Shown here one piece after another: positions 1-30,567 of a stretch of DNA of 33,440 bases (positions within the stretch are counted from its first letter, which is position 1; each line of letters begins with the position of its first letter). The notes under the pieces are model-generated. The model did not search any database and was not told the origin of the DNA. It saw only the letters and a program-made list of their open reading frames with translations. Made by a program: the position numbers and the translations under genes. The stretch lies in the IMG/VR virus record IMGVR_UViG_3300045988_163839; one strand, given 5' to 3'. Source of the stretch: a virus.

Positions 1-85
1 CTTTTTTTTGTGTGTTGATGTCTTTGATTGCTCTGTTAATTATAGGTATGATAACTTTGTGTATAATTGTTGCTTCTAAATGGAA
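1..85. repeat. Terminal redundancy: 1-85 is identical to 33356-33440 (circular contig overlap; unit length 33,355 bp)
   Basis: Base-by-base comparison of both window ends. The ORF starting at 33157 continues in frame into 1..239. Confidence 0.95.
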
Positions 86-239
86 TAATTTTCCGCAAGC
101 AATAATAGTCATAATATCTAGTGTTGTAACCATTTTATCTACCATTATTGCATTGCCAACAATTATATGTAATTACCTATTTCATAAAAAAGAGGATAAA
201 GATTTACTTGATTTTATTATAAAATTAAATAACAAATAA
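1..239 (+). CDS. C-terminal part of a wrap-around ORF (33157..33355 + 1..239, 145 aa): two-TM membrane protein, candidate PanT-like toxin
   Basis: Same frame as 33157 across the junction. Has two hydrophobic helices (FFCVLMSLIALLIIGMITLCIIV, IIVIISSVVTILSTIIALPTII). Its start overlaps the stop of the upstream Panacea-domain gene (ATGGATAA). Confidence 0.6.
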   Translation, partial: FFCVLMSLIALLIIGMITLCIIVASKWNNFPQAIIVIISSVVTILSTIIALPTIICNYLFHKKEDKDLLDFIIKLNNK

Positions 240-250
240 ATAGTAACAAT

Positions 251-287
251 AAAAAAGCCACTCGCTATTAACTGAGTGGTTTTTTTA
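251..287 (+). terminator. Rho-independent terminator after the membrane-protein ORF
   Basis: Stem CCACTC (258-263) / GAGTGG (274-279) followed by T-run 280-287. Confidence 0.7.
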
Positions 288-513
288 TTGTTAAAAAACG
301 CCTTAAAAACTCAAGACGCTTTTTCTTGTTGGCAACAAAGAATCAGTTAGAATGAAATAATAAGACTTCCAAACAAATAATTATTTTTTATAATTGCTAG
401 ATAGGGTACTTTTAATAAATTTTTAAAAATCGTATAAAGTATTCAATTTTTGATTCAATATATAATTTTTGATAAAATTGCAAGAAAAAAATGTAAAAAT
501 TTTACTCTATCAG

Positions 514-542
514 TTGGAATTTGACGAAATATATTGTATAAT
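514..542 (+). promoter_or_regulatory. Candidate sigma-70-type promoter for small ORF 595..699
   Basis: TTGGAA (514-519), 17-nt spacer, TATAAT (537-542). The background is AT-rich, so specificity is limited. Confidence 0.4.
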
Positions 543-594
543 GTAAATACACCTCGATAGCTATTAAAGTGAATAAAGTATAAAAGGAGGAAAA

Positions 595-699
595 ATGGAT
601 TTTCTCTATTATTTTATTGCGGCATTGTTGGAAGACTTAGAGTACGAGGATGGAGAAAAGCTACTTGAGATTATTGAGAAATATCTCGATAATATTTAG
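595..699 (+). CDS. Small ORF-a (34 aa, MDFLYYFIAALLEDLEYEDGEKLLEIIEKYLDNI), member of the FLYYFIAALL small-protein family
   Basis: RBS AAAGGAGG lies 6 nt upstream. Paralogous to 2869..2985 and 32095..32313 with mostly synonymous differences. Its 3' end converges into and overlaps the end of 661..1050. Confidence 0.5.
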   Translation: MDFLYYFIAALLEDLEYEDGEKLLEIIEKYLDNI

Positions 700-1050
700 T
701 AAATCATCAGTTTGCTGAGGAGTTAAATTTTTAAATTTTTCTAAAGATAAATTATGAGAGCGCATTCTTTCAGCTATAGCAGTGGGTAAGTCTGTCGAAA
801 TAAAATCGGCAGACTTATTTTTTATATGCGTATTAACAATATTTTCGTAAGCATTGGGGATTTCAGTCCTGCCTAATAGATAATCAACGGAAACGTTGAA
901 ATAGTCGGCAAGCTTGTTGAGTGTGGCTATATCGGGTTCGCGTTGCCCTAATTCGTAATTGCCGTAAGCAGATACAGTAATACCTAAATATTTAGCTATA
1001 TCCGTTTGTGTTTGTTTCAGTGCTTTTCTTAATGGTTTCAAAGTTTTCAT
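661..1050 (-). CDS. XRE-family HTH repressor (CI-like, 129 aa), switch A
   Basis: N-terminal HTH_XRE signature (LKQTQTDIAKYLGITVSAYGNYELGQREPDIATLNKLADYFNVSVDYLLG). RBS AAGGTGA. Divergent from promoter 1116-1144. Confidence 0.85.
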   Translation of the reverse strand: MKTLKPLRKALKQTQTDIAKYLGITVSAYGNYELGQREPDIATLNKLADYFNVSVDYLLGRTEIPNAYENIVNTHIKNKSADFISTDLPTAIAERMRSHNLSLEKFKNLTPQQTDDLLNIIEIFLNNLK

Positions 1051-1068
1051 GATATTTCACCTTAAAAC

Positions 1069-1097
1069 ATTTTAACATAAAGTGCAAATGAATTCAA
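1069..1097 (-). promoter_or_regulatory. Promoter of the switch-A repressor gene
   Basis: Minus strand reads TTGAAT (1097-1092), 17 nt, TAAAAT (1074-1069). Confidence 0.55.
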
Positions 1098-1115
1098 CAA
1101 AATGGCTAAAAATAG

Positions 1116-1144
1116 TTGACAATAGACAAAATGTGTGATAAAAT
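1116..1144 (+). promoter_or_regulatory. Rightward early promoter P_A
   Basis: TTGACA (1116-1121), 17 nt, TAAAAT (1139-1144), with an extended -10 TG at 1136-1137. Flanked by direct repeats AAATGGCTAA (1102-1111, 1161-1170) that are candidate operators. Confidence 0.7.
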
Positions 1145-1195
1145 ATGATTAAGTTAGACGAAATGGCTAACTAATATAAAAAGGCAGGTAAAGGA

Positions 1196-1309
1196 ATGGA
1201 CGAAGAAATGCAAGACAAGACGCTCGAACGGATAATCGAGTATCTGACCACAAAAGGTTGGACGGATAAGGAAATCATTGAGATGCTTACATATTTAGCA
1301 AAAACGTAA
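1196..1309 (+). CDS. Leader small ORF of the P_A transcript (37 aa, MDEEMQDKTLERIIEYLTTKGWTDKEIIEMLTYLAKT)
   Basis: ATG 7 nt after the AGGCAGGT leader motif (1182-1189). Occupies the same position as leader ORF 31803..31949 in module C. Confidence 0.45.
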   Translation: MDEEMQDKTLERIIEYLTTKGWTDKEIIEMLTYLAKT

Positions 1310-1334
1310 AAAGGTAAAAAGGTAAAAAAGAAAA

Positions 1335-1414
1335 GCCGTCCGACGGAAATGCAAAAAGCGTAGGACGGCGATAAGGGAAGAGGGGCGAACAACCTGCCTA
1401 AGCCCCTCCGTTCC
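1335..1414 (+). ncRNA. Double-hairpin RNA element, copy A (candidate antisense/immunity or antitermination RNA)
   Basis: Hairpin 1 is GCCGTCC (1335-1341) / GGACGGC (1363-1369). Hairpin 2 is GAGGGGC (1380-1386) / GCCCCTC (1402-1408). The hairpin 2 loop contains ACCTGCCT (1392-1399), complementary to 1182-1189 and 1431-1437. No U-tract follows. Confidence 0.55.
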
Positions 1415-1456
1415 TATTATTATAGAGCAGAGGCAGGAAAAAGTCAAGGAGGTATA

Positions 1457-1660
1457 ATGAATTTTAAAGAACTGTTAAAGTCAAACGATATGACTTGTGC
1501 ACGTTTAGCGCGAAAATTAGGTGTTTCGCGTTCGCTTGTAGGATTTTGGGCGTCAGGTAAGTGTAAGCCTAGTTTAACGCAAATTCCGAAATTAGCAGAT
1601 ATACTATCGGTCGGAATCGACGAGTTGGTAAATTATTTTTCAGGAAACGGAAGTTTGTAA
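1457..1660 (+). CDS. Cro-like XRE-family HTH protein (67 aa)
   Basis: RBS AAGGAGG. HTH motif MTCARLARKLGVSRSLVGFWASGKCKPSLTQIPKLADILSV. First substantial gene of the rightward early transcript. Confidence 0.85.
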   Translation: MNFKELLKSNDMTCARLARKLGVSRSLVGFWASGKCKPSLTQIPKLADILSVGIDELVNYFSGNGSL

Positions 1661-1680
1661 AATAGAAATCAAAATCGTCT

Positions 1681-1883
1681 GTCACCGCTTTTGTACATGT
1701 TTGAGAGCCTAGTTATTTTATAAAACTCTTAAACAAGAGGGTATTTAAAATGGAAATCAAAATCGTTTGAGAGCCTTGTTATTTTGTAAAACTCTCAAAC
1801 AATTACAAAAGATGACTGAACAAAAGTGGTGTTTGAGAGCCTTGTTATTTTGTAAAACCTCAAACATGTACGAAAGCGGTGAC
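1681..1883 (+). repeat. 18-bp inverted repeat arms (1681-1698 / 1866-1883) abutting both edges of the mini-CRISPR array
   Basis: GTCACCGCTTTTGTACAT versus the reverse complement of ATGTACGAAAGCGGTGAC. All 18 positions pair, with one G-U wobble. Confidence 0.85.
1699..1865 (+). CRISPR. Cas-less mini-CRISPR array: 3 repeats (36/36/35 nt) and 2 spacers (30 nt each), type II-like repeat
   Basis: Repeats at 1699-1734, 1765-1800 and 1831-1865. Consensus is GTTTGAGAGCCTTGTTATTTTGTAAAACTCTCAAAC. Spacers at 1735-1764 and 1801-1830 are unique. R1 has 3 substitutions and R3 a 1-nt deletion. Confidence 0.8.
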
Positions 1884-1928
1884 AGCGCGAAACATAAAGG
1901 CATATAAAGACATAAGCAGAGGTGCGAC

Positions 1929-2189
1929 ATGGTATATAAACCGCATAATTTTGAAGTCACTATGGTAACGGCGGACGGGACAATCTTTAAAGGCGAGGAT
2001 TGGATGAAAGAGCCGCAGGTTTTTACATACGAAAAGAACAAGGAATTATGCGACGATTATGCGCGTAAAGTGGATCCTGCTTATAGAGCTAAAGAGCGCG
2101 CCGTCAAGCGTTTCGAGCGCGTAGAAGAGCGCCGCCGCGAGCTTTTGGAGCAGCGTGAAAAAATCGATAGAGAGCTTATAAAGTTTTAG
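1929..2189 (+). CDS. Hypothetical early protein (86 aa, basic/coiled C-terminus)
   Basis: ATG with RBS AGAGGTG. Lies downstream of the array in the same transcript. Its stop codon lies inside the solitary repeat 2183-2218. Confidence 0.65.
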   Translation: MVYKPHNFEVTMVTADGTIFKGEDWMKEPQVFTYEKNKELCDDYARKVDPAYRAKERAVKRFERVEERRRELLEQREKIDRELIKF

Positions 2190-2218
2190 AGCCTTGTTAT
2201 TTTGTAAAACTCTTATAT
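2183..2218 (+). repeat. Degenerate solitary CRISPR-like repeat unit (SRU)
   Basis: GTTTTAGAGCCTTGTTATTTTGTAAAACTCTTATAT: 32/36 identical to the array consensus, with differences at positions 5, 32, 34 and 36. Confidence 0.6.
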
Positions 2219-2269
2219 AAAAAGGAGAATGGACAGCGTAAATTATAAGATTTTTATTTTTGTCACGGC

Positions 2270-2494
2270 TTACTCATTGATATCGATAATAAATTGTTTC
2301 TTGCTATCGTTGGTTTCCGCGACGATTTTGCAATCTAAAATTTTAGCAATTTTTACGAGCTCATCAGCTCCGAAATTATCACGATATAGCTTATTACTCA
2401 TAGATTGCGGTATTATACCGATAGCGTCAGCTAAATCCTTAACTGTTATATTTCGCTCAATCATTAACTGTTTTATAGTTTTTGCTCCAGCCAT
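2270..2494 (-). CDS. XRE-family HTH regulator (74 aa), switch B
   Basis: HTH motif IKQLMIERNITVKDLADAIGIIPQSMSNKLYRDNFGADELVKIAKIL. RBS GAGGTGA. Divergent from P_B. Confidence 0.85.
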   Translation of the reverse strand: MAGAKTIKQLMIERNITVKDLADAIGIIPQSMSNKLYRDNFGADELVKIAKILDCKIVAETNDSKKQFIIDINE

Positions 2495-2515
2495 AATTAA
2501 TCACCTCACAAAACT

Positions 2516-2545
2516 ATCATAACATATTTGATTATATTTTGTCAA
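2516..2545 (-). promoter_or_regulatory. Promoter of the switch-B regulator gene
   Basis: Minus strand reads TTGACA (2545-2540), 18 nt, TATGAT (2521-2516). ATAATCAA-type repeats occur at about 2530-2539 (inverted), 2562-2571 and 2592-2601. Confidence 0.5.
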
Positions 2546-2583
2546 TTATAATTAAAAAATAATCAAAAAATATTAAAAAACGC

Positions 2584-2612
2584 TTGACTATATAATCAAA
2601 ATTGAGTATAAT
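2584..2612 (+). promoter_or_regulatory. Rightward early promoter P_B
   Basis: TTGACT (2584-2589), 17 nt, TATAAT (2607-2612). The spacer carries a TATAATCAAAA operator-like repeat. Confidence 0.7.
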
Positions 2613-2697
2613 ATAATCGTAAGGTTGAGAAAGACCTTGCGAAAATCTAAAAAGGCAGGTGAAAAAATGTAAAATGTAAAAGGGTTGGTTTGGTTGG

Positions 2698-2733
2698 GTT
2701 TGAGAGCCTTGTTATTTTGTAAAACTCTCAAAC
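2698..2733 (+). repeat. Perfect solitary CRISPR repeat unit (SRU) in the leader of the P_B transcript
   Basis: 36/36 identical to array repeat 1765-1800. Preceded by GGTTGGTTTGGTTGG (2683-2697) and followed 8 nt later by double-hairpin element B. Confidence 0.85.
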
Positions 2734-2741
2734 AACAAAAA

Positions 2742-2809
2742 GCCGCCCTCACTTTGAACGATAGGACGGCGAGAAGGTACGAGGGGCAAACAACCTGCCT
2801 AAGCCCCTC
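2742..2809 (+). ncRNA. Double-hairpin RNA element, copy B
   Basis: Hairpin 1 is GCCGCCC (2742-2748) / GGACGGC (2764-2770) with 1 mismatch. Hairpin 2 is GAGGGGC (2781-2787) / GCCCCTC (2803-2809). Loop ACCTGCCT (2793-2800) is complementary to 2653-2660 and 2829-2836. Confidence 0.55.
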
Positions 2810-2825
2810 GACCCTCTAATTATAT

Positions 2826-2984
2826 GACAGGCAGGTAAAAAAGTCAAATAAATTGGAGGATTTAAAAAATGGATTTAGGAATACGCACAGAGGAAGCAAA
2901 AGGGACGCATGTATTAGAGAAAGCAGAAAATAACGCGGAGTTTTTATATTATTTTATCGCGGCGTTATTGCAGGAAATGCCTTA
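2826..2984 (+). repeat. 159-bp direct repeat, near identical (2 mismatches) to 32052-32210
   Basis: Manual alignment. Covers the AGGCAGGTAAAAAAGTCAA motif, the RBS and the first 38 codons of the small ORF. Homology ends exactly at the TAA that truncates ORF-b. Confidence 0.9.
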
Positions 2985-2985
2985 A
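2869..2985 (+). CDS. Small ORF-b (38 aa), truncated paralog of 32095..32313
   Basis: MDLGIRTEEAKGTHVLEKAENNAEFLYYFIAALLQEMP*. RBS GGAGGA. The stop sits where the 159-bp repeat ends. Confidence 0.45.
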   Translation: MDLGIRTEEAKGTHVLEKAENNAEFLYYFIAALLQEMP

Positions 2986-3013
2986 ATGTTAACTTCAATA
3001 GGGCGATAAAATA

Positions 3014-3226
3014 TTATATCGGAAACATAAGCTCAATATCGAAATCCAGGCCGTTTTCCTCGGCCGAATCCCAGCAAGCTATAAGCTCAAGACACTCTAC
3101 ATAAGCGGTTTTCTCTCCGTAAATAAAATCGGTATCAACGACTTCTGAATCGTACAGTTCGCGCAAATGACTTTTAACCGTTTCGATAACGTACTTCAAT
3201 GCTTCTTCAGCTTTCATCTTTTGCAT
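3014..3226 (-). CDS. Small acidic hypothetical protein (70 aa)
   Basis: ATG with RBS GGGGGA. Stand-alone minus-strand gene in the accessory region. Rich in D/E, with no recognisable domain. Confidence 0.65.
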   Translation of the reverse strand: MQKMKAEEALKYVIETVKSHLRELYDSEVVDTDFIYGEKTAYVECLELIACWDSAEENGLDFDIELMFPI

Positions 3227-3334
3227 AATTCAATCCCCCACTATATGTGCTGAATAAATTATATCTTATTTATATATCAGGATTTTCGCCCACTAAGGGC
3301 CTAATCAAATATTTTTTACAAAGGAAGTTGAAAA

Positions 3335-3730
3335 ATGAAACACTATCAAAAGGTTAAACCGACGGAAAGACTGATTTTAAAAGCCCTTGTCGCTAAAGAC
3401 GATAATCCCGAAATAACCGAAGCATTCAGCAGGGCTCTGGACTTTTTCGACAGCTACGACAAGGTCGAACACACGGCGCACGCGGAGGTCATGCGAAAAA
3501 TTTACCTGAATAATAACTGTTATAAATACTCCGACAGCACGCACGGACTGCCGAGAAAAACCGGCGTACCAAGCAGAACGCTCTGCCGATACAGAAAAAA
3601 ATACCTGTCGTATCTTTACATGTTTTATTGCCGCCTGACCGGCAACGAATACACCGACAACATTACGAGCTTTTTTATACTGTTAAAACAAAAATTCAGT
3701 AAACAAAAACACGGAGGAAAAACACAATGA
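3335..3730 (+). CDS. Putative ArpU/RinA-type (sigma region-4-like) transcriptional regulator (131 aa)
   Basis: RBS AAAGGAAG. C-terminal HTH-like segment GLPRKTGVPSRTLCRYRKKYLSY. The domain call rests on motif resemblance only. Confidence 0.5.
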   Translation: MKHYQKVKPTERLILKALVAKDDNPEITEAFSRALDFFDSYDKVEHTAHAEVMRKIYLNNNCYKYSDSTHGLPRKTGVPSRTLCRYRKKYLSYLYMFYCRLTGNEYTDNITSFFILLKQKFSKQKHGGKTQ

Positions 3731-29151: not shown

Positions 29152-30567
29152 TTATTTTTTGAGCCGTAAATTTACTGTGATTCTGCTGCCGTCAACTATG
29201 ATATTTTTGATAAGATATTCTAGCAACGTGCGCTTTTGTCGCCGGTTGAGTATACTGTATTCTGCAATAGACTTTTTAATCGCTTCAGCGTTAGTCGGCG
29301 CGGACTGTACGGATTCAGTTTCTTTTTCTATCAGATTTTGCAGCTCCGCAATTTTAGAATCGTATTCGATTTTTCTTATAAGAAAAGTATCTTTATCAAT
29401 ATCGCCGGAAAGATACAGGTCAAGCAGTTTGCTTTGCGAGCGTTTTATCGCGCCTATTTCGCTCATCATTTTGTCTATGAGGCCGGGGGAGAAGTCGGCT
29501 TTGTTGTAATCGTCAATATTCAGATTGAGTACGTAATCCTCGACGATTTTTTCCAGCTCCTCGGCGCGGTAAATATCATTGTCGCATTTTGCCGGGTGAT
29601 AATTTTTATCGCGCTTAAGTCTGGCCGCGCAACCGTAATCCCGGTAACGGTAATGCTTGGTGTGCGTACCGTCCGGCTTTTTAGTGTAACGCTCATACAT
29701 TTTGCCGACGTATCGGTTTCCGCACCTTCCGCAAATCAGAAGTCCGGTTAAAAGATAGGGCGAGCTGTCCGAAAGCCGTTTAGTACGGTTTCTGTCAACT
29801 TGCGCCTGCGCCTGGAGAAAAAGCTCGTAAGAAATAATCGCTTCGAAATTAGTCCCTTTTGTGAGTTCTCCGCCGCGGTAACGGAAATAGCCGGCGTACA
29901 GCGGCCTTTCGATTATAGGCTTGCAGCACATTTGATTGTTGAAATATTTAACGTCCGGATAGGCTTCGCGGCAATAATCGTATAGCTTTCTGAAGGTATA
30001 ACCGTGATTAACGTATAAATCGAATATCTTGCGTATAATCTCGGCTTCGGATTCTTCAATGAGGAGACGGTCGTTTTTCTTATCGTGCCGGTATCCGAAA
30101 GGGCAGCGCGTTCCGGGACATGTATATTTGCCTTCTTTGGCTCTTGCGATTTTGCCCATTTCCATGCGCTCTACAATAGTTTCGCGCTCAAGTTCGGCAA
30201 AAGTAGCCATCATTTTTAATGCCGCGCGGCCGAAAGGAGAGGCTAGATCGAAATTTTCCGAAAGCGAATAAAGAGTTACGTTACATTTATCAAAGGTTTC
30301 GACAAGTTCTAATACGTCCTTGACATGGCGTGAAAGACGGTCAAGCTTATATACCAGCACGGTATTTATCTTGCCGTGCTGAATATCGTTCAGCATTCGC
30401 TCCATATTCGGGCGTAATAAATCTTTGCCGGAAAAGCCCTCGTCGGAATACGTATCGACGACAGCATACCCTTGCGCGCTTGCGTAGTGCAGTAATTTAT
30501 CCTTTTGCTCGCCTATGGAATATCCGTCGGTCGCTTGTTCCATCGTGCTTGCGTTAAACGCGAACAT
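29152..30567 (-). CDS. Large serine recombinase (integrase) body. The in-frame N-terminus lacks the Y-x-R of the catalytic YxRxS motif, so the gene is probably disrupted
   Basis: Resolvase-domain motifs STMEQATDGYSIGEQ, VLVYKLDRLSRH and FAELERE, a recombinase domain, a Cys-rich zinc ribbon and a C-terminal coiled coil. The ORF begins MFAFNAST instead of ..IYxRVST. Confidence 0.85.
   Translation of the reverse strand: MFAFNASTMEQATDGYSIGEQKDKLLHYASAQGYAVVDTYSDEGFSGKDLLRPNMERMLNDIQHGKINTVLVYKLDRLSRHVKDVLELVETFDKCNVTLYSLSENFDLASPFGRAALKMMATFAELERETIVERMEMGKIARAKEGKYTCPGTRCPFGYRHDKKNDRLLIEESEAEIIRKIFDLYVNHGYTFRKLYDYCREAYPDVKYFNNQMCCKPIIERPLYAGYFRYRGGELTKGTNFEAIISYELFLQAQAQVDRNRTKRLSDSSPYLLTGLLICGRCGNRYVGKMYERYTKKPDGTHTKHYRYRDYGCAARLKRDKNYHPAKCDNDIYRAEELEKIVEDYVLNLNIDDYNKADFSPGLIDKMMSEIGAIKRSQSKLLDLYLSGDIDKDTFLIRKIEYDSKIAELQNLIEKETESVQSAPTNAEAIKKSIAEYSILNRRQKRTLLEYLIKNIIVDGSRITVNLRLKK

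Follow-up and report, generated by a model that had tools for sequence, protein, structure and literature searches.

Antisense RNA control has been well studied in the phages and plasmids of enterobacteria, but hardly in the phages of gut Clostridia, for which there are no model systems. The c4 RNAs of P1 and P7 and plasmid incompatibility work through specificity and cross-talk, and in P1/P7 heteroimmunity the complementary sequences differ between related phages. Lambda OOP and P22 sar are short antisense RNAs with their own promoter and terminator, convergent to the early operon after its first gene or genes, and in the prgQ/prgX region of pCF10, a Firmicutes mobile element from Enterococcus, convergent promoters a few hundred base pairs (bp) apart combine antisense pairing with transcriptional interference. 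In the IncI1 and IncB plasmids, the antisense RNA blocks translation of a leader peptide and prevents formation of the pseudoknot that is needed for RepZ translation (PMC8053102). In phage P4, a leader RNA element is complementary to upstream and downstream sites of the same transcript (PMC4825925); OOP RNA is treated in PMC5869508, and PMC3531473 deals with how txpA and yonT depend on RNase III. Here, we analyze three related modules, A, B and C, in a stretch of 33,440 nucleotides (nt) from the IMG/VR virus record IMGVR_UViG_3300045988_163839, hereafter the window. Each module comprises a sense promoter, two adjacent hairpins (1 and 2), a site in the 5' untranslated region (5' UTR; site 1) and a site downstream of the hairpins (site 2), both complementary to the loop of hairpin 2, together with a predicted gene for an antisense small RNA (sRNA) on the minus strand. 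As judged from sequence, the modules represent an undescribed, unannotated antisense sRNA family with putative three-site pairing, present in temperate phages of gut Clostridia.

The nearest mechanistic analogue appears to be the competition of the Inc RNA of ColIb-P9 and IncB plasmids with a pseudoknot, although the fit is partial. As described for IncI-alpha ColIb-P9 and IncB pMU720, a short antisense RNA with its own promoter, predicted in our case, targets the loop of an mRNA-leader hairpin, this loop is also complementary to a distal mRNA site, with pseudoknot and antisense RNA in competition, and a small upstream open reading frame (ORF) belongs to the unit (PMC8053102). Unlike these plasmid systems, to which they have no sequence relationship, the phage modules are carried by a Clostridia temperate phage instead of an enterobacterial plasmid, possess two cognate sites rather than a single one (one of the two lies in the 5' UTR) at a variable distance from the ribosome-binding site (RBS), and have a small ORF that encodes a conserved protein upstream of the target hairpin. 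The genes downstream encode helix-turn-helix (HTH) or small proteins, not a replication initiator with leader-peptide coupling.

Predicted antisense RNA genes convergent to the sense transcripts

On the sense mRNA, the order of elements is 5' hairpin, site 1, RBS and a protein of 37-50 amino acids (aa), hairpin 1, hairpin 2, site 2 and the next RBS. In the alignment, the most conserved columns 3' of hairpin 2 are ATTATA and AGTCAA, which, read on the minus strand, constitute a promoter, TTGACT-17-TATAAT. The promoter scan gave 11/12 for these antisense promoters in all three modules (1447->1419, 2847->2819 and 32073->32045), which makes them equal to the sense promoters. With spacers of 16-18 nt allowed, the best match had a spacer of exactly 17 nt in 23 of 23 modules, and the antisense -10 box abuts hairpin 2. 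At the other end, hairpin 1 is always preceded by an A-run, a U-tract on the minus strand (e.g., UUUUCUUUUUU or UUUUUGUUGUUU), and is thus an intrinsic terminator on that strand; the U-tract is clear in all but module C, as counted from the sequences of the 23-module set, and a simple terminator scan flags the module B copy. The first-pass annotation had stated that no U-tract follows the hairpins, which holds for the plus strand only.

Minus-strand folds consist of a 5' stem-loop followed by a terminator. Since the hairpins lie between a strong and conserved minus-strand promoter and a minus-strand U-tract, they are not mere structures of the sense transcript, as had been assumed, and a convergent antisense sRNA gene of ~80-95 nt is predicted. 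The loop of this sRNA, being the reverse complement of the hairpin-2 loop, is identical in sequence to mRNA sites 1 and 2. Around site 1, the promoter scan, read by eye, found a weak minus-strand promoter match in module B and none in module A. No Rfam family overlapped any module at gathering scores in the whole window, at E<=10 in positions 1-3400 or at E<=0.1 in ten related loci. Taken as a prediction from sequence, the minus-strand RNA gene is very likely real.

In module A, the sense promoter P_A (1116..1144, plus strand; TTGACA-17-TAAAAT, TG-extended, 11/12 in the promoter scan) is followed in the 5' UTR by site 1, AGGCAGGT (1182..1189, plus strand), which stops 6 nt short of the ATG that opens the small ORF (1196..1309, plus strand; 37 aa) and is complementary to the hairpin-2 loop with -15.4 kcal/mol. 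Hairpin 1 (1335..1369), the terminator stem of the antisense sRNA on the minus strand, has its U-tract at ~1334->1322. Hairpin 2 of the mRNA occupies 1370..1421 (plus strand; core 1380-1408), with an inner stem (1380-1386/1402-1408), a 15-nt loop (1387-1401) that carries the anti-site ACCTGCCT at 1392-1399, and a covarying outer helix on the plus strand that abuts the antisense -10 box. In its spacer, the antisense promoter (1419..1447, minus strand; TTGACT-17-TATAAT) contains site 2, AGGCAGG (1431..1437, plus strand; -13.9 kcal/mol), 8 nt upstream of the Shine-Dalgarno sequence (1446-1452, plus strand) of gene 2 (1457..1660, plus strand), which encodes a 67-aa Cro/CI-type HTH protein. The predicted antisense sRNA A (~90 nt; 1322..1413, minus strand), with ends estimated from the -10 box and the U-tract, would begin with a 5' stem-loop that is reverse-complementary to hairpin 2 and has the loop UUAGGCAGGUUGUUC, and would close with a terminator made up of the hairpin-1 reverse complement and UUUUCUUUUUU. 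Upon re-inspection of the sequence, every coordinate that the first-pass annotation had given for module A was correct.

The recurrence of this architecture at 2584-2868 and 31703-32094, also proposed earlier, was upheld, in the latter case with a changed loop and leader site. Module B has its sense promoter at 2584..2612 (plus strand; TTGACT-17-TATAAT) and site 1, AGGCAGGT, at 2653..2660 (plus strand); the small ORF has shrunk to ATG-TAA (2668-2673), and a solitary repeat of the CRISPR type stands in its stead (2698-2733). Hairpin 2 (2772..2817, plus strand) consists of the outer helix AGAAGGT/ACCCTCT, the inner stem GAGGGGC/GCCCCTC and a loop (2788-2802) with ACCTGCCT at 2793-2800, and the antisense promoter (2819..2847, minus strand; TTGACT-17-TATAAT) again holds site 2, AGGCAGGT at 2829-2836, in its spacer. 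For the predicted antisense sRNA B (~80 nt; 2733..2812, minus strand), promoter and terminator were both flagged by the scan; its 5' stem-loop would be the reverse complement of hairpin 2 (2781-2809), and its terminator that of hairpin 1 (2742-2770) plus UUUUUGUUGUUU.

Module C begins with a 12/12 sense promoter (31703..31731, plus strand; TTGACA-17-TATAAT), followed by site 1, GGCAAGC (31776..31782, plus strand), complementary to loop C, and by the small ORF C (31803..31949, plus strand; 48 aa). Its hairpin 2 (32001..32043, plus strand) has the outer helix AGAGGG/CCCTCT, the inner stem CAGAGGGG/CCCCTCTG and a loop (32015-32026) with GCTTGCC at 32019-32025. In the spacer of the antisense promoter (32045..32073, minus strand; TTGACT-17-TATAAT) lies site 2, AGGCAGGT at 32055-32062, and the predicted antisense sRNA C (~93 nt; 31945..32038, minus strand) would terminate at the reverse-complemented hairpin 1 (31957-31996), where the U-tract, UUCCCUUUU, is weaker. 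Modules A and B have one loop/site code in common, which is also the code found at site 2 of module C; this site can pair with loop C only by means of two G.U pairs.

Between the convergent sense and antisense promoters lie ~300 bp, and the predicted antisense RNA, which is short and terminated, extends over the intercistronic region of the early operon. Like lambda OOP and P22 sar, it has a promoter and a terminator of its own and runs against an early operon just behind the first gene or genes. These features would also suit a plain cis-antisense RNA of the OOP type or a convergent-transcription switch of the pCF10 prgQ/prgX type, in which regulation proceeds through the full sRNA:mRNA duplex and polymerase collision only and sites 1 and 2 have no pairing role. 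However, lambda OOP and P22 sar, which are not homologous to the modules, are not known to have extra covarying mRNA target sites, and the Anti-Q RNA of pCF10 arises by processing of a longer mRNA and works through terminator attenuation, whereas no sense-strand terminator is evident here. Against regulation by duplex and collision only stands the covariation of sites 1 and 2 with the loop through at least four code changes, at conserved positions and in 19 of 22 modules against a chance expectation of ~0.3 in 22 (see below), and we therefore regard it as rather improbable.

Strand preference of the helices and covariation of loop and sites

Related modules were collected in several ways. Exact and degenerate DNA patterns showed the same modules in eight IMG/VR contigs; a generic two-hairpin DNA pattern, applied to the viral_contigs collection, gave chiefly chance GC-rich matches and a single true new module, L057 (L numbers are our handles for loci). 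Further modules were gathered via the C-type small protein, the genomic contexts of which were taken from assemblies and metagenome contigs, and in these contexts the hairpin or hairpins were nearly always present in the intergenic region 3' of the small gene. The search with a covariance model, suggested by the first-pass annotation, succeeded in part: a model built from class 1 copies recovered loop classes 1, 2, 4 and 5 but missed class 3, the modules of which were retrieved through the small protein instead. Altogether, ~50 related modules were available, i.e., a first set of 22 distinct modules and 28 further metagenomic ones.

In the window, the hairpin pairs fold with z-scores of -4.8 (A), -4.7 (B) and -4.5 (C), and none of 200 shuffled sequences folded as well. 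Hairpin 2 is longer than first described and consists of an inner GC stem inside an outer helix, the sequence of which differs by copy (GGGAA/TTCC, AGAAGGT/ACCCTCT and AGAGGG/CCCTCT). Both helices covary, with 13 of 14 pairs changed on both sides, and 93.9% of the cells were paired compared with 41.7-54.9% in slid controls; the observed values were reached in 0 of 500 shuffles.

These data raise an important question: which strand makes use of which helix? Among the non-Watson-Crick cells of hairpin 1, 14 were C.A, which correspond to G.U on the minus strand, and none was G.U, indicating that hairpin 1 is built for the minus-strand RNA. The opposite holds for hairpin 2 (six G.U on the plus strand and no C.A), which must therefore fold in the mRNA. 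Moreover, the outer helix starts at the antisense -10 box, with one arm mostly upstream of the likely antisense start, and is thus complete only in the mRNA. Several site-2 pairings also involve G.U, namely, GGCGGG in L009, GGCAAGU in L083 and, in the window, loop C with the A/B-type site 2 of its own module, AGGCAGGU (-10.4 kcal/mol), and these pairings work only as plus-strand RNA. Taken together, the asymmetries of the helices and of the G.U pairs argue for functional RNA on both strands. Two adjacent stem-loops 0-1 nt apart, located after an early promoter and a first small gene and without a sense-strand terminator, could also represent a processive antitermination RNA similar to HK022 put or a structure that stabilizes or processes the mRNA. 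Nevertheless, hairpin 1 pairs better on the minus strand, where its 14 sense-strand C.A mismatches become G.U, and neither the loop/site covariation nor the antisense promoter is accounted for, which makes this the least probable of the explanations considered.

In the window itself, the 8-mer AGGCAGGT/ACCTGCCT occurs six times in 33 kb (both strands) compared with 0.34 expected, all six copies belong to the three modules, and none of 100 shuffles reached this number. Across the ~50 modules, at least five versions of the hairpin-2 loop exist, each with a complementary 6-8-mer in the 5' UTR and usually another ~20 nt after the hairpin, so that the earlier observation of a loop complementary to an upstream and a downstream site on the same strand now extends to a covarying set. 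The loop ACCUGCC goes with the site GGCAGGU in modules A and B and their relatives, GCUUGCC with GGCAAGC in module C, L083-L087, L103 and L105, AACUGCC with GGCAGUU in L057, GCCUUAC with GUAAGGC in class 3, the commonest, and GCUACC with GGUAGC in L077. Because hairpin 2 was misaligned when all module types were aligned with MAFFT, custom scripts instead of column-based pair counts were used to score the complementarity between loop and sites. Among the first 22 modules, an exact complement of at least 7 nt was found in 19 leaders and 11 downstream regions, whereas the shuffled regions gave means of 0.28 and 0.25, respectively. In the class-by-class matrix, the best match of a loop class was usually found in its own regions, clearly so in the leaders and less cleanly downstream. 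The 28 further metagenomic modules, in which one loop is framed by many different hairpin-2 stems, had leader sites in 26 cases and downstream sites in 19. We have fairly high confidence that the loop/site pairing is under selection.

Given this covariation and the G.U pairs that are workable only on the plus strand, RNA-RNA pairing in a layout resembling seqA/seqB/seqC of P4 is a fair description, and to this extent the P4 CI/P1 c4-like control proposed by the first-pass annotation stands. As in P4 CI and P1/P7 c4, a leader RNA element of a phage operon is complementary to sites on both sides of it, and the complementary sequences vary among related phages. The stable RNA of that family, ~70-77 nt long, is released from the sense leader by RNase P/PNPase. 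In a mechanism entirely of this type, the sense hairpin region would be excised as a stable RNA, the loop of which pairs with the sites in cis or in trans and thereby stops translation or terminates transcription prematurely, and the antisense transcript would be irrelevant or secondary; the same-strand layout, the plus-strand G.U pairs and the several codes among related phages, as expected of immunity specificity, are all in agreement with it. Such a mechanism leaves unexplained both the universally conserved minus-strand promoter and terminator and the C.A/G.U asymmetry of hairpin 1. In contrast to P4 CI and P1 c4, a dedicated antisense gene overlaps the element here, three copies are present per phage, and nothing suggests processing into a stable sense RNA; no sign of RNase P-type processing was noticed in the sequence, although no formal test for such signals was made. 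The sites are mostly off the RBSs, and, since no Rfam match of any kind was obtained, there was none to the phage C4 antisense RNA family (P4 CI/P1 c4). We therefore consider a mechanism wholly of the P4 type improbable: the analogy to P4 and P1 covers one part of the system and does not amount to family membership.

Another possibility is that the 7-8-mers are operator half-sites bound as DNA by a regulator, such as the divergent XRE-type HTH gene product that accompanies each of the three modules, with RNA complementarity as a by-product. One site does lie in the antisense-promoter spacer and one just downstream of the sense promoter. However, the modules of XRE A and XRE B have the same code although the two proteins are unrelated, while XRE B and XRE C are homologous (35% identical), yet the codes of their modules differ, and a divergent XRE gene is lacking from many class 3 modules. 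Moreover, one copy is always inverted in the loop of a covarying hairpin, the G.U substitutions preserve RNA pairing but not DNA identity, and the sites are lone, non-palindromic 7-mers separated by hundreds of bp. This reading, which we hold to be extremely unlikely, was rejected, since the loop/site code does not track the XRE protein.

A putative three-part RNA switch

The above results can be combined into a model in which each module would function as a three-part RNA switch around the convergent antisense sRNA gene, a model that we favor with moderate confidence. The strong sense promoter would produce an mRNA with site 1 (X), the anti-site in the hairpin-2 loop (X') and site 2 (X), and the near-consensus minus-strand promoter an RNA of ~80-95 nt with loop X and an intrinsic terminator. 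Because the sRNA loop equals sites 1 and 2 in sequence, three sequences would compete for the hairpin-2 loop of the mRNA. In cis, loop X' would have two alternative partners, site 1, which lies in the 5' UTR or right at the 5' end, and site 2, located ~20 nt beyond the hairpin; the resulting long-range pseudoknots would govern the flanking genes at the level of stability or translation. The antisense RNA would compete for the same loop by a kissing contact, and the kissing complex might then zip into a duplex of ~80-90 bp, a likely RNase III substrate, by which the cassette would be shut down or uncoupled. The sRNA would thereby act as the specificity determinant, with a loop/site code that has several versions, and cassettes of the same code could cross-talk. 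Any specific regulatory output of such a switch is, on the present sequence data, less certain than the model as a whole.

Several points weigh against this model. The antisense transcription start, the terminator and the existence of the sRNA itself are all predictions, and the pair counts derive from a covariance-model alignment, which is fitted to the model. The spacing between site 2 and the next RBS varies widely, from 8 nt (module A) up to an intergenic gap of 366 nt (L088); such variability fits poorly with a simple RBS-activating pseudoknot, and site 2 seems to go with hairpin and promoter, not with the RBS. Site 2 is weak or absent in ~30% of the modules, L099 and L100 have no convincing sites, only about five independent code changes lie behind the covariation, and the metagenome sample is dominated by class 3. 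In addition, the site-1 pairings are all Watson-Crick and would work equally well in a minus-strand read-through transcript, so that the pair type does not tell on which strand site 1 acts. In this respect, class 3 is informative: in two dozen different modules, site 1 is located 6-7 nt after the -10 box of the sense promoter, i.e., at the extreme 5' end of the mRNA, and is followed by a covarying hairpin that is located between the 5'-terminal GUAAGGC and GAAAGGAAGTGAGGAA, which argues for a role in the mRNA. For this class, it is just as good a guess that the 5' end of the mRNA is protected.

The occurrence of several codes and the sharing of one by modules A, B and site 2 of C suggest that specificity and cross-talk matter. 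A further, more speculative proposal, unlikely though conceivable, is that the code serves as an address, with the constitutive antisense RNA of each cassette silencing all cassettes of the same code, in the resident prophage as well as in superinfecting relatives. If so, the address code would resemble plasmid incompatibility or P1/P7 heteroimmunity, and phages of gut Clostridia would rely on RNA only, both to coordinate early and counter-defence cassettes and to compete over them, including cassettes with solitary repeats and phage-borne mini-CRISPR arrays, putatively of type II-A.

The element is compact and clearly bounded (two promoters, one terminator, one loop and two sites), and its recurrence in many uncultured prophages with several interchangeable specificities makes it directly testable. 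It drives cassettes with a mini-CRISPR array and a solitary repeat and may therefore show how phages time counter-defence RNAs; it also adds to phage genome annotation an unannotated, predicted sRNA family with no match in Rfam.

Small proteins, CRISPR elements and genome context

The ORFs that had been annotated as leader ORFs do not encode mere leader peptides but conserved small proteins of two types. For the A type (..LERIIEYL..GWTDKEIIEML..), encoded in module A, a search of viral_contigs reached only the same eight phages; the C type (..GMTNAQLNAFLE..), represented in module C by ..GMTNAQLNALLE.., has 136 homologues in a large protein collection. A small ORF with a convergent sRNA that overlaps its 3' region, in a prophage, is reminiscent of the type I toxin-antitoxin systems of Bacillus prophages (bsrG/SR4 and txpA/RatA), in which mRNA structure likewise matters; the ORF would then encode the toxin and the antisense RNA would be the antitoxin, and the long-range 5'-3' complementarity inside the mRNA would also be in agreement. 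However, by eye, the phage small proteins are charged, helical and hydrophilic, with no membrane helix or hydrophobic stretch, the mRNA runs on into further genes with no terminator on the sense strand, and module B retains the RNA parts although its ORF has been replaced by a CRISPR repeat. Thus, a type I toxin-antitoxin function is very unlikely.

In class 3, the 5' UTRs (e.g., L093 2440-2500 and the leaders of L121-L181) have a strongly conserved RBS region, GAAAGGAAGTGAGGAA, before the small ORF in nearly all modules. The window also encodes three paralogous small proteins with the motif ..FLYYFIAALL.. (595-699, 2869-2985 and 32095-32313; 34, 38 and 72 aa), two of which, with almost the same 5' UTR, represent gene 2 in modules B and C; a search for Pfam and PHROG matches to these paralogues returned none.

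Directly 3' of the HTH gene of module A lies a mini-CRISPR array (1699-1865, plus strand) composed of three 36-nt repeats (GTTTGAGAGCCTTGTTATTTTGTAAAACTCTCAAAC; 1699-1734, 1765-1800 and 1831-1865) and two 30-nt spacers (1735-1764 and 1801-1830). The same repeat forms full arrays in metagenome-assembled genomes of gut Clostridia/Christensenellaceae; in L010, the one locus checked, the array is adjoined by ORFs of the size of Cas9, Cas1, Cas2 and Csn2, which, by size only, suggests type II-A. In viral_contigs, the two phage spacers had no target except for the relatives' own arrays, and host spacers compared with the window gave short partial matches only and no protospacer. Solitary copies of the repeat are also present, a perfect one in module B at 2698-2733 and a partial one at 2183-2215 after ORF 1929-2189. 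In the related L002, an intact small ORF is located behind the same promoter, indicating that in module B of the window the repeat replaced the ORF. These solitary repeats are candidate RNA anti-CRISPRs or CRISPR-like regulatory RNAs (for comparison, see PMC10651486 and bioRxiv 10.1101/2024.10.29.618823).

An inverted repeat of ~20 bp (gtctgtcaccgcttttgtacat at 1677-1698 and atgtacgaaagcggtgacag at 1866-1887) flanks the whole mini-array; it would close the array in a long RNA stem, possibly a processing site. Spacer 1 (1735-1764) resembles the sequence immediately upstream of the array (1647-1676), with 23 of 30 positions matching, including the last 12 nt (GAAATCAAAATC), and this likeness could reflect a duplication remnant or a partial self-target. 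Candidate host tracrRNAs were noted on the minus strand of L010 (7855-7990, or about 120-146 on the plus strand), where the candidate lies upstream of the putative cas9, and of L014 (from 6607); they consist of an anti-repeat, TTACAAAATAACAAGGCAAGTTCAAAT, followed by hairpins and a terminator. The idea that the phage hairpins themselves are a tracrRNA-like tail, raised by the adjoining type II CRISPR repeats, was rejected: the hairpin-2 motif GAGGGG...CCCCTC was absent from 17 host CRISPR loci, and the tracrRNA candidates of L010 and L014 are, by eye, unlike the phage hairpins.

The window corresponds to a circular or circularly permuted genome of ~33.36 kb, since bases 33358-33440 repeat bases 1-83, and because of this terminal redundancy the three modules are neighbours, occupying a plus-strand region of ~5 kb that runs from 31.7 kb across the origin to 3 kb. 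The phage is temperate, with a serine integrase on the minus strand (29152-30567), the strand that also encodes a Sak-like annealing protein, a replication initiator, the large terminase and a portal protein. When the initial 6 kb of the window were compared with GenBank phages by BLAST, no match was obtained. Downstream of module C, at 32688-33164, a gene for a Panacea-domain (SocA-like) antitoxin is found (Pfam, E = 2.4e-16), and it overlaps the start of a small hydrophobic ORF (33157-239) that runs across the ends of the window; the two probably form a toxin-antitoxin pair. In L088, the 366-nt intergenic region that follows the module (2624-2989) has a very stable predicted fold (-112.6 kcal/mol) and may hold a further structured RNA.

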